Assembly (NCBI GenBank): GCA_951804945.1 | Contig: OX638149.1 | Location: forward strand, 139,438,001-139,502,000 | Direction: 5' to 3' | DNA from: Podarcis cretensis | Lineage: Eukaryota | DNA length: 64,000 nt | Shown here: one piece after another, positions 28,927 through 35,836 of the stretch | Numbering within the stretch: position 1 is the first letter of the stretch | Layout of the letters: each line of letters opens with the position of its first letter | Program-made: the position numbers and the translations under genes | Notes under the pieces: generated by a model | Databases searched by the model: none | What the model saw: the letters and a program-made list of their open reading frames with translations, nothing else | What the model was told of the DNA's origin: nothing

Positions 28927-29062
28927 CAGGCATAGGCAAACTTGGCCCTCCAGATGTTTTGGGACTACAATTCCCATCATCCCTGACCGCAGGTTCTGTT
29001 AGGTAGGGATCATGGGAGTTGTAGTCCCAAAACATCTAGAGGGCCGAGTTTGCCTATGTCTG
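28927..29062. mobile_element. Fold-back hAT (Charlie-like) MITE, 136 bp
   Basis: ~57-bp inverted arms with 5 mismatches. TSD gcctacag / gcctagag. Confidence 0.88.
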
Positions 29063-30695: not shown

Positions 30696-33644
30696 TAGAA
30701 TCATAGAATCATAGAGTTGGAAGAGACCACCAGGGCCATCGAGTCCAACCCCCTGCCAAGCAGGAAACACCATCAGAGCACTCCTGACATATGGTTGTCA
30801 AGCCTCTGCTTAAAGACCTCCAAAGAAGGAGACTCCACCACACTCCTTGGCAGCAAATTCCACTGTCAAACAGCTCTTACTGTCAGGAAGTTCTTCCTAA
30901 TGTTTAGGTGGAATCTTTTTTCTTGTAGTTTGGATCCATTGCTCCGTGTCCGCTTCTCTGGAGCAGCAGAAAACAACCTTTCTCCCTCCTCTATGTGACA
31001 TCCTTTTATATATTTGAACATGGCTATCATATCACCCCTTAACCTCCTCTTCTCCAGGCTAAACATGCCCAGCTCCCTTAGCCGTTCCTCATAAGGCATT
31101 GTTTCCAGGCCTTTGACCATTTTGGTTGCCCTCCTCTGGACACGTTCCAGTTTGTCCGTGTCCTTCTTGAACTGTGGTGCCCAGAACTGGACACAGTACT
31201 CCAGGTGAGGTCTGACCAGAGCAGAATACAGTGGCACTATTACTTCCCTTGATCTAGATGCTATACTCCTATTGATGCAGCCCGGAATTGCATTGGCTTT
31301 TTTAGCTGCCGCGTCACACTGTTGGCTCATGTCAAGTTTGTGGTCAACCAAGACTCCTAGATCCTTTTCACATGTACTGCTCTCAAGCCAGGTGTCACCC
31401 ATCTTGTATTTGTGCCTCTCATTTTTTTTGCCCAAGTGCAATACTTTACATTTCTCCCTGTTAAAATTCATCTTGTTTGTTTTGGCCCAGTTCTCTAATC
31501 TGTCAAGGTTGTTTTGAAGTGTGATCCTGTCCTCTGGGGTGTTAGCCACCCCTCCCAGTTTGGTGTCATCTGCAAATTTGATCAGGATGCCCTTGAGTCC
31601 ATCATCCAAGTCGTTGATAAAGATGTTGAATAAGACCGGGCCCAAGACAGAACCCTGTGGCACCCCACTAGTCACTCTTCTCCAGGATGAAGAGGAACCA
31701 TTGATGAGCACCCTTTGGGTTTGGTCAGACAGCCAGTTACAAATCCACTGAGTGGTAGCATAGTCAAGTCCGCATTTTACCAGCTTCTTTACAAGAATAT
31801 CATGGGGCACCTTGTCAAATGCCTTGCTGAAATCAAGGTAGGCTACATCCACTGCGTTCCCTTCATCTACCAGGCTTGTAATTCTGTCAAAAAACGAGAT
31901 CAGGTTAGTCTGACATGACTTATTTTTCAGAAATCCATGCTGACTATTGGTGATCACAGTATTCCTTTCTAAGTGCTCACAGACTGTTTGCTTAATGATC
32001 TGCTCCAGAATCTTCCCTGGTATTGATGTCAGACTGACTGGGCGGTAATTATTTAGGTCCTCTCTTTTCCCCTTTTTGAAAATAGGGACAACATTTGCCC
32101 TCCTCCAGTCTGCCGGGACTTCGCCTGTTCTCCAGGAATTCTCAAAGATGACTGCCAGTGGTTCTGAGATCACATCTGCCAGTTCTTTTAATACTCTTGG
32201 ATGCAGTTCATCTAGCCCTGGAGACTTGAATACATCTAAACTAGCCAAGTATTCTTGTACTATCTCCTTAGTTATTCTGGGCTGTGTTTCCTCTGCTGAA
32301 TCATTTGCTCCAAATTCTTCAGGTCGGGCATTGTTTTCTTTATCAGAGAAGACTGAGGCAAAGAAGGCATTGAGGAGTTCAGCCCTTTCTGTGTCCCCTG
32401 TTTGCATTTCACCATCTTCTCCTCTGAGTGACCCCACTGTTTCTTTGTTCTTCCTTTTGCTACGAACATACCCATAAAAGCCTTTTTTGTTGCTTTTAAC
32501 CTCTCTAGCAAGCCTGAGTTCATTCTGTGCTTTAGCTTTTCTGACTTTGTGTCTACACGTGCTGGCTATTTGTTTGAATTCCTCTTTGGTGGTTTCCCCC
32601 CTTTTCCATTTTTTGTACACATCCTTTTTTAATCTTAACTCAGTTAAAAGTTCTTTAGATAGCCACCCTGGCTTCTTTAGGCACCTTCCATGTTTCCGTC
32701 TCATTGGTATTGCCTGAAGTTGTGCTTTTACTATCTCCCTCTTAACAAACTCCCAGCCATCATGAACTCCCTTTCCTTTTAGTATTACTGTCCATGGGAT
32801 CTCACCCAGCACTTCCCTACGTTTTATGAAGTCGGCTTTCTTAAAGTCAAGAAATTGAGTCCTAGTATGCTTGGCTGCTCCTTTCCGCTGTATAGTAAAC
32901 TTCAGAAGAGCATGATCACTCGCGCCTAATGATCCTTCCACTTCTACCCCACTAACCAGGTCATCAACATTGGTTAGGACCAGATCTAAAATGGCTGTTC
33001 CTCTTGTTGCTTCTCCCACTTTCTGGACAACGAAGTTGTCTGCAAGGCCAGTGAGGAATCTGTTTGACCTTATGCTCTTGGCTGAGTTTGACATCCAGCA
33101 AATATCCGGGTAATTAAAGTCCCCCATTACTACTATCTCCCTTCCTTTTGCATGCTTGGCCATCTGTTCCAGGAAGGCATCATCTATGTCCTCCGTTTGG
33201 CTTGGGGATCTATAGTAATCTCCCACAATGAGGTCCCTGTTATCCTTCTCTCCCTTAATTTTGACCCAAATGCTCTCACTTTGGCTTTGAGGTTCTAAAT
33301 CTTGGATCTCTTCACAGGTATACACATCCCTGACATATAACACCACTCCTCCTCCTTTCTTGTCTGGTCTGTTTCTCTGAAATAGATTGTATCCCTCCAT
33401 TATTACATTCTAGTCGTGGGACTTATCCCACCAGGTTTCAGTGATGCCTATTATGTCATATTTAGTTTGCTGTACCAAGAGCTCAAGCTCATCTTGTTTA
33501 TTACCCATGCTTTGCGCATTAGTGTACAGACATTGAAGTCCATTAATCATTCCCCCGTGTCTCTTATTTAAGGATTCTTTCCTCCCACCACTAGGTCTGT
33601 GTGCTGTTTGCTCCATTTGGTCTATGACATTTGGTCTATGACAT
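30696..33644 (-). mobile_element. CR1 LINE, ~2.95 kb, essentially complete ORF2, 5'-truncated
   Basis: (ATTCTATG)n tail at 30696-30715, followed upstream by APE endonuclease and RT coding sequence. Confidence 0.97.
30866..33400 (-). CDS. CR1 ORF2 (APE endonuclease + reverse transcriptase), 844-aa open segment
   Basis: Endonuclease motifs VMGDFN, LDLVL, SDH; RT motifs [32 protein letters not shown]. The N-terminal piece CLYTNAQSMGNK..IGITETWW (within 33410-33616) is in frame behind one TAG. Confidence 0.93.
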
Positions 33645-34573: not shown

Positions 34574-35111
34574 GCTAATGTGATGTTTCAACTTTTGGAA
34601 CAAAATTGTATGCTCATGGTTTTGCACGTGAGGCACCTTAGTTGTAAACATCAATTCTGTACAGAGGAACTTTTAAGCAGCACTCTTTAGCAAGCTCTGA
34701 GAGAGAGTTGAGGCAGGGAGTGGCCAACATTATAGGCAACTAGCTCACTGATTCAGAAAAAGAAAGGGATATTTTGAACTAAGATTAGATTAAATGCATC
34801 ACTTAGCTGGCAGAAGGTTCATGGTATGGTTCAGTCTCACATGGCGTCATTTTGTAAAGCATTCAGCAGCAAATATTGCAGCCACAGTTCATGTGAGGCA
34901 AATAGAACAGGAGAGGGCAATTTCATTTCAAATTGATAAGTACTGTTCTCTAGCCTTGCCAGTTTGGATGGAGGTCATCTCAAGGTAAAGACATAGCAAC
35001 TATCCATTGTGTCAAATGCTTTTTTGTGTGTATGCGCCTGCTTGCTAAGGGTGGTGCAAACCAAGATAAGGTATTGAGATATGACATGATTTGTTCCACT
35101 AAATCTCTGTA

Positions 35112-35353
35112 CAGTGGTACCTCGGGTTACAAACACTTCAGGTTACAAACACCTCAGGTTACAGACTCTGCTAACCTGGAAGTAGTACCTTGGGTTAAGA
35201 GCTTTGCCCCATGATGAGAAAAGAAATCGTGTGGTGGTGGTCCAGTGGCAGCGGGAGGCCCCATTAGTTAAAATGGTACCTCAGGTTAAGAACGGTTTCA
35301 GGTTAAGAACAGACCTCCAGAACGAATTAAGTTCGTAACCAGAGGTACCACTG
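35112..35353. mobile_element. Tc1/mariner-type MITE
   Basis: TA|CAGTGGTACCTCGGG ... CCAGAGGTACCACTG|TA. Confidence 0.92.
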
Positions 35354-35589
35354 TACTTCCAAGATGCTGCTGTTTATTATTTTCTCTTCACAGAAACAGA
35401 TCTTAGCAATTCTTATTGATGCGCCTGCTTTTTGGGGGAGTGGGGGAGATAACAAATTTAGTCTTTTGTGATTCAGTTTTGGGTGCTAGGTTTCAACTTT
35501 GTTCTTACATTGATAACTAACCGGTGAATATTAGTTGCTGAATCAGTGGATTGATACACTTAGGAACATATTTTTGGGCATGACTGCTA

Positions 35590-35836
35590 CAGCTGTAGGT
35601 CTGAACAATATAACACAACACAATGGCCAATAACAATGGCACTAAACACTATTTATAGACTAATACAAAAGATCAGAAATTACAACCAAAGTCTCTAAAT
35701 CTTCTTCACTAGTCGCAGTAGAATAATTCAAAAGTTTGATGTATACATAATCTGTCACCAAATATCGCTGGAACAGAGTTTCCAGATAACTAACGGTAAT
35801 CTTTTTCGTTCAATGCTTCATCAGCTATAGGTCTGG
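35590..35836 (-). mobile_element. Penelope-terminal-repeat / retrozyme-like unit
   Basis: Bounded by 14-nt direct repeats cagctgtaggtctg (35590-35603) / cagctataggtctg (35822-35835), and contains a hammerhead-like core. Confidence 0.5.
35782..35836 (-). ncRNA. Type I hammerhead ribozyme-like motif (probably partly degenerate)
   Basis: 5'-CCAGA CCU AUAG CUGAUGA AGCAUUGAAC GAAA AAG AUUAC CGU UA GUUAU CUGG-3'. Both core boxes and a UUA triplet are present, stem I is CCAGA..AUAG(C) / (G)UUAUCUGG, and stem III has one mismatch. Confidence 0.55.

Follow-up and report, generated by a model that had tools for sequence, protein, structure and literature searches.

A 5′-truncated Neptune-type terminal-repeat end in Podarcis cretensis and the type I hammerhead predicted for its family

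Hammerhead ribozymes are described in a common nucleotide numbering and cut after a triplet that follows the NUH rule. In metazoan Penelope-like elements, the published text of PMC4209133 describes minimal type I hammerheads that lie in the terminal repeats, have a short stem I, an extra nucleotide after A9 and a G10.1-C11.1 pair, and occur in many dispersed, truncated and inverted copies; the family reported here shares all of these traits. The two builds differ in the remaining helices: in the minimal motifs stem III is absent or tiny and palindromic, stem II is long and the active form is thought to be a dimer, whereas in the clade of our locus stem III has 5-7 bp with an inner part of 11-17 nt and stem II has 1-3 bp, and an absent or tiny palindromic stem III combined with a long stem II was not found in the family. 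A large helix III without recognisable loop contacts is instead shared with the hammerheads of fungal and protist Penelope-like elements, of which the one from Serpula cuts as a monomer (main text of PMC4209133); those elements lack an endonuclease and are telomere-associated, whereas our clade is vertebrate, endonuclease-bearing and has one pair in stem II. In the Penelope element of D. virilis, the terminal-repeat intron likewise ends at helix I and spliced and unspliced RNAs differ there (PMC4209133), but both forms keep a 2-bp helix I (supplement Fig. S3), whereas splicing in the lizard sister families described below reduces stem I from 2-3 pairs to 1. PAc, a Poseidon element of Anolis carolinensis whose template is uncut RNA, shares with our family a hammerhead upstream of two adjacent 3′ ends and an optional tail of 30-40 nt; it differs in belonging to another clade, in an ORF that starts inside the hammerhead, which was not found in the window family, and in that no stem III is described in its published text (PMC11167929). 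Animal non-LTR retrozymes, as their published descriptions have it, share a type I hammerhead, a similar unit size and Penelope ancestry (PMC7229834; bioRxiv 10.64898/2026.07.22.740005), but consist of tandem units that each carry a hammerhead, whereas copies of our family are single or inverted, uneven in 5′ length and bounded by apparent target-site duplications (TSDs).

Throughout this published text a long helix III is reported for fungal and protist elements and for no metazoan, and the lizard variant was not found there, though supplements, figures, Repbase or Dfam may hold it. The family is a member of the Penelope-like class, with neither a minimal dimer-type hammerhead nor the organization of a retrozyme as these are set out in the main texts of PMC7229834, PMC6765202 and PMC6155905. 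The copy at our locus is a relic of this known class and unimportant in itself; the fold of its family departs from the described metazoan hammerheads and matters modestly. Metazoan Penelope hammerheads are held to be weak dimer-type motifs, and a vertebrate clade here shows the opposite build. Moreover, a single genome offers a graded series (stem II of 4, 2-3 and 1 pairs; stem I of 1-5) along with natural spliced and unspliced forms, a panel for asking whether such motifs cut alone, need the element protein or are gated by splicing.

The locus and its element family

The window, by which we mean the whole 64,000-nt stretch of DNA analysed, holds on its minus strand, at 35601-35825, what we read with good confidence as a 225-bp, 5′-truncated end of a Neptune-type Penelope-like retroelement between 14-bp TSDs, belonging to a family with a predicted type I hammerhead and itself likely inactive. 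The piece derives from the terminal repeat (pLTR), and its limits are those of the family matches, which start at 35825 and stop at 35601. In the own genome, which comprises 51 contigs and 1.5 Gb, the search returned at least 52 matches including the window, the other copies being mostly 85-94% identical with 40 of 83 candidates scored; the best matches over the full length of the piece, 86-92% identical, all stop at or near 35601. The absence of other copies, which an earlier note made from the letters alone had named as fatal to its reading, is contradicted by these matches, at least 51 of which lie elsewhere in the genome. Upstream of 35825 the window shares nothing with the matches, and other copies extend up to about 500 nt further.

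The piece is flanked by two copies of a 14-nt direct repeat, at 35822-35835 upstream and 35590-35603 downstream on the minus strand, which agree at 13 of 14 positions and lie 232 nt apart; the last 4 nt of the upstream copy overlap the truncated start of the element and the first 3 nt of the downstream copy overlap its 3′ end. The earlier note had seen this repeat and taken it for the start of a next unit. A direct repeat of 14-17 nt, different in sequence from locus to locus, is present at both junctions in 13 of 41 family loci, the window included, against a longest repeat of 9 nt in 41 controls, and the junction test gave no repeat of at least 14 nt in the remaining 28 loci, which include nested and split copies with unsure junction calls. 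In relatives X11 and X15 the 14-mer reads the same on both sides, and no empty site was seen among the four relatives, all of which have the insertion. By this family pattern the repeat is a target-site duplication, and the strand that the earlier note used as the 5′ half of stem I, which is the upstream repeat copy, would therefore be host DNA. The case carries a warning that a TSD can mimic a ribozyme stem and a tandem unit alike.

The coding affinity of the family comes from its longest copy (L021), which runs upstream into the end of a reading frame whose product shares 65% identity over 40 aa with P0001, a protein from a lacertid. This protein is 96% identical to the sister locus L041, contains a CxxCxxC linker and a GIY-YIG-type motif, and has GIY-YIG proteins as its neighbours in the Atlas; searches of Pfam and NCBIfam with the sister ORF pieces gave no match. 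The zinc-finger linker before the endonuclease (CX2-5CxxC) is thus far a feature of P0001 and L041, the longest copy of the window's own family ending short of it. According to the published text of PMC8557442 a CxxCxxC linker marks Neptune and Nematis, and the Penelope-like clades reported from vertebrates are Neptune and Poseidon (bioRxiv 10.64898/2026.07.22.740005, main text). We accordingly class the family as Neptune type by the linker of P0001 and L041 and by its own ORF end and terminal-repeat hallmarks rather than by an RT tree, an assignment that applies to the family and not to the window copy itself; no full-length copy of the window family was found in its own genome.

The terminal repeat contains an 84-nt GT-AG intron that is present in some family copies and absent from others. 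No RNA data set was listed as containing the window locus. Family copies do occur in contigs from four runs presumed to be RNA, and three of them show the 84-nt skip; as intronless copies are also present in DNA, and contigs reveal neither strand nor ends, this carries no weight. As in Penelope elements, there are inverted, 5′-truncated partner copies and an optional tail of 30-40 nt: two 3′ ends, 31-39 nt apart, account for 24 and 21 of 63 alignments, and the window copy finishes at the commoner, short one. No core match has a same-strand neighbour within 1 kb (0/46) and 10 of the 46 lie in opposite-strand pairs within 600 bp, which argues against a tandem unit.

The hammerhead predicted for the family

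The copies, rather than the window alone, predict for the family a type I hammerhead in which stem III has 5 bp, stem II 1 bp and stem I 4 bp and the cut follows GUU. Its two boxes, CUGAUGA (C3-A9) at 35818-35824 and GAAA (G12-A15.1) at 35804-35807, are retained in the window copy, which had been noticed correctly, as had their spacing of 10 nt; the family as a whole has CUGANGA, GAAA and an NUH triplet. Taken by themselves the two boxes are at chance level in the window (3 matches, a number reached by 24 of 100 shuffles), whereas a 22-nt core pattern gave 46 matches in the genome and none in the control, showing that the boxes are borne by the family. An extra unpaired A at 35817 directly follows the first box, as is typical of Penelope hammerheads (published text of PMC4209133). 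Stem-loop II, at 35808-35816, is reduced to the G10.1-C11.1 pair, kept in all 22 aligned rows, and a 7-nt loop.

The register was set by a descriptor run on 51 copies, in which five bases after GAAA pair with a strand 16 nt on, GUU follows, and a 4-nt strand after it pairs with the bases just before the core. In window coordinates, stem III spans 35773-35804 (35804-35800 with 35773-35777), is closed by A15.1-U16.1 in the family, and keeps four of its five pairs in the window copy; the cleavage triplet GUU, at 35772-35774, is found in 39 of 44 cores, and by hammerhead rules the cut would fall between 35772 and 35771. The 3′ strand of stem I follows at 35768-35771. The own-family set of 44 comprises the 46 core matches minus two spurious rows; stem I adjoins the core with 4-5 pairs in 36 of them and with a single pair in the window copy, and 20 of the 44 combine all six features (boxes, G10.1-Y11.1, five stem III pairs, GUH, and at least three stem I pairs).

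Stem III is the part that comparison across families bears out. Sister families, collected through the end of the ORF and through patterns that omitted the 3′ strand (41 matches, control 0; 225 matches, control 2), have the same stem III helix in different sequences. In 22 cores from about 11 families, hand-chosen and made up of related sequences that inflate the shuffle control, the helix is 99% paired and both sides change at three of the five pairs, with two of the 22 rows misaligned by a short loop III and dropping out of the counts; slid controls reached 28-49%. RNAalifold predicted stem III as the only helix in these cores. Among the 71 sister cores with a 5-bp stem III, the cut-site base is U, C or A in every one and never G. 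Comparison of copies, from which the earlier note had expected stems II and III to re-emerge, thus recovers a covarying stem III that differs from the drawn one, and leaves stem II unrestored.

For stem II the families form a gradient, with four pairs in some, 2-3 in others and one in the clade of the window family, where a descriptor that demanded two pairs fitted none of the 51 copies in the family register and gave one match at another GAAA. A natural hammerhead with a 1-bp stem II works but needs a pseudoknot, according to the text of PMC3088659. In our family a stretch at 35756-35762, in the tail, may pair with loop II over 7 bp including three G-U pairs; this is seen in the own family, without cross-family covariation (p 0.21). 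A loop II pseudoknot shared across families, sought in the leader (p 0.96) and in the tail (p 0.21), was unsupported. In intact copies, moreover, the hammerhead fold is not the minimum free energy (MFE) structure (−0.5 to +7.3 versus −8.7 to −13.9 kcal/mol), and z-scores are near 0. Rfam hammerhead models gave no match in the window at E values up to 1 and none in 12 loci with intact cores at E values up to 10.

Several observations on the same motifs stand beside these. Other Penelope-like families of this genome (L121-L128, L137) carry near-canonical hammerheads: stem II has 4 bp, capped in one of them by a UUCG loop, stem III has 5-7 bp and stem I 2-5 bp, the triplet is GUC, and Rfam detected none of them. 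In loop III of several own and sister families a self-complementary stretch centred on CCGG recurs despite CpG decay, and could let two RNAs pair. A further, incomplete CUGAUGA box precedes the core by 25 nt in most own-family copies (e.g. L006:1665-1752), and some copies have one box alone. A derivation of the stretch before the core as a copy of the end of exon 1 was rejected, 156 of 1000 shuffles scoring as high.

Competing readings and the fate of the window copy

The earlier note had joined the boxes, a UUA triplet and flanking complementarity into a single hammerhead, and had read the interval as one full unit of a small non-coding retrozyme followed by the beginning of the next, cut after UUA and giving circles of about 230 nt. 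The parts exist: the UUA lies at 35793-35791, and 35836-35825 is complementary to 35790-35782, in the form drawn as a bulged stem I. Also upheld is that the interval belongs to a dispersed repeat and that its hammerhead core comes from a Penelope-like element. What fails is their assembly, and with it the stem, repeat and retrozyme readings. The drawn fold comes to +6.8 to +7.6 kcal/mol and the MFE to −11.0, a gap of 18 kcal/mol; the 55-nt stretch folds as a single long hairpin with the core CUGAU paired and no three-way junction, and in an 81-nt fold the MFE structure pairs CUGAU with an insertion private to this locus, U4 being paired with a probability of 0.985. That insertion, at 35791-35797 in loop III with a net gain of 6 nt, contains the UUA, and the family triplet GUU lies 19 nt further down. 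The drawn stem III is broken by the C at 35803 of three relatives, and the family pairs a different, longer one. The complementary outer strands are not a stem of the family, and the genome has a single instance of the drawn 5′ strand joined to the core (five more matches at two mismatches, none of them family copies), and likewise of the insertion with UUA (one other match at one mismatch, control two); no subfamily with either was found in the own genome. These comparisons make the UUA site and both drawn stems, I and III, chance features of the window locus. A retrozyme would explain the core boxes, the 232-nt spacing, a unit size within the 150-450 bp given for animal retrozymes in the text of PMC7229834, and a local hairpin with a z-score of −2.27; yet the repeat is specific to each locus, none of the 46 core matches is part of a head-to-tail tandem, copies extend upstream into intron and ORF, and stem I and UUA are unique to the window locus and are not kept in relatives. 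We regard the retrozyme as extremely improbable and the piece as the 3′ end of a protein-coding Neptune-type element.

The same drawn fold could instead be a novelty, a working hammerhead made from host and element sequence when the element inserted and kept by the host since. Eight stem I pairs can be drawn for it, and the junction and the 6-nt insertion are common to all four relatives; an unpaired G nevertheless separates UUA from stem I, the MFE structure ties up the core, and three of the relatives carry 2-3 changes per 55 nt, a rate that equals or exceeds that of the flanks, with one change falling on the cut site. Such a host ribozyme is very improbable. Over the four relatives the 55 nt show 0, 3, 2 and 2 differences, no fewer than the flanks, UUA has become UUG in one, and 35803 is A in the window copy versus the family's C, with C in three of the four. 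We read this pattern as neutral decay and the window copy as a neutral relic. It retains a single stem I pair, its 35768-35771 strand having lost its partner, has A for C at 35803 and contains the core-trapping insertion; on the fold model it scores 32.7 bits against 50-63 for most own-family copies. By our reading stem I was lost at insertion, and the copy is likely inactive. The 6-nt insertion may have been copied from local DNA: with its neighbours (35785-35797) it matches 35513-35526, in the flank about 270 nt away, at 13 of 14 positions with one gap.

Harder to set aside is the reading that accepts this relic and denies catalysis: no hammerhead of the clade would cut, and boxes and stem III would persist as a remnant or as a signal for splicing or protein binding. 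It fits the 1-bp stem II, the single stem I pair of one abundant family and of spliced copies, and a fold that is not energetically favoured, and published texts report that the hammerhead of the anole Poseidon element is dispensable for insertion in vitro, with no RNA ends at its cut (PMC11167929), and that Naiads have stemless cores (PMC8557442). Against it speak the non-G at the cut site in 71 of 71 cores, a stem I that shifted from A-U to G-C together with a new 5′ strand in the window family, and related families of the same genome in which this long stem III goes with a complete stem II of 4 bp. Absence of catalysis is possible, though we doubt it, and we lean towards self-cleavage by intact family RNA; acting as a single copy, the hammerhead of an active element would cut precursor RNA, probably with low efficiency or aided by the element protein.

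A sequence of events can be proposed for the origin of the window copy. A tandem element would be transcribed from its terminal repeat, and the element protein would begin reverse transcription at a point past the cut site, about 170 nt from it for the short end and about 205 nt for the tailed end. Its template would be uncut RNA, by analogy with the anole Poseidon element and because copies run through the ribozyme and their 5′ ends are not piled up at the cut, the nearest of 63 ends lying at −11, −8, +5 and +5. Synthesis would have passed the ribozyme and stopped at its 5′ edge, where 4 nt of microhomology would have joined it to the target; the duplication would come from repair of a nick staggered by 14 nt. 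The later 6-nt insertion and a C-to-A change would then have produced the fold of the earlier note by chance.

Splicing and stem I in sister families, and the surroundings of the locus

In five sister families (L045, L049, L067, L081 and L038; intronless copies L144-L187), the last bases of the terminal-repeat intron directly precede C3. These introns measure 95-117 nt and have precise intronless counterparts in the genome. Patterns for the predicted spliced copies, which fixed the 5′ strand and not the 3′ one, gave 95 and 40 matches in overlapping sets, with none in the control and with exon 1 as the upstream sequence; roughly half of the 95 come from a family in which those bases are present without splicing. 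Of 31 intron-bearing copies, 27 have a stem I of 2-3 pairs; of 30 intronless ones outside F046, 27 have 0-1 pairs, and the lone spliced copy of F063 keeps two. F046 itself (L046, L143-L169) is abundant and keeps core, stem III and GUU with a single stem I pair in all ten copies examined; its spread in this state argues that cutting is dispensable. The window family has its ribozyme 50-75 nt downstream of the acceptor, where splicing does not affect it.

A more far-reaching model, speculative and in our view unlikely as a whole, would have the lizard Neptune hammerhead, with its long stem III and 1-bp stem II, cut as a single copy, with several families drawing stem I from the final three intron bases, an arrangement that would let splicing switch cleavage off; the window family would have escaped this control through a new 4-bp stem I beyond the splice site. 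If the model held, splicing would decide which RNAs stay whole for translation and copying, and this hammerhead variant would have escaped both Rfam and the descriptors for minimal hammerheads.

The other Penelope remnants that the earlier note had mentioned in the window gave no protein match, and a fold-model search of the window found no second core; scans of 16 of its 45 long frames revealed no host gene. Directly left of 35590-35836, a small element at 35109-35356 with 26-nt terminal inverted repeats recurs in the window and inside several of the loci; it resembles a miniature transposon of the Tc1/mariner type. On the minus strand, an 847-aa frame at 30866-33409 with endonuclease and reverse-transcriptase domains is a LINE remnant. 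A palindromic repeat at 28953-29036, which has a sub-threshold Rfam mir-5408 match on both strands, is likely a transposon end.
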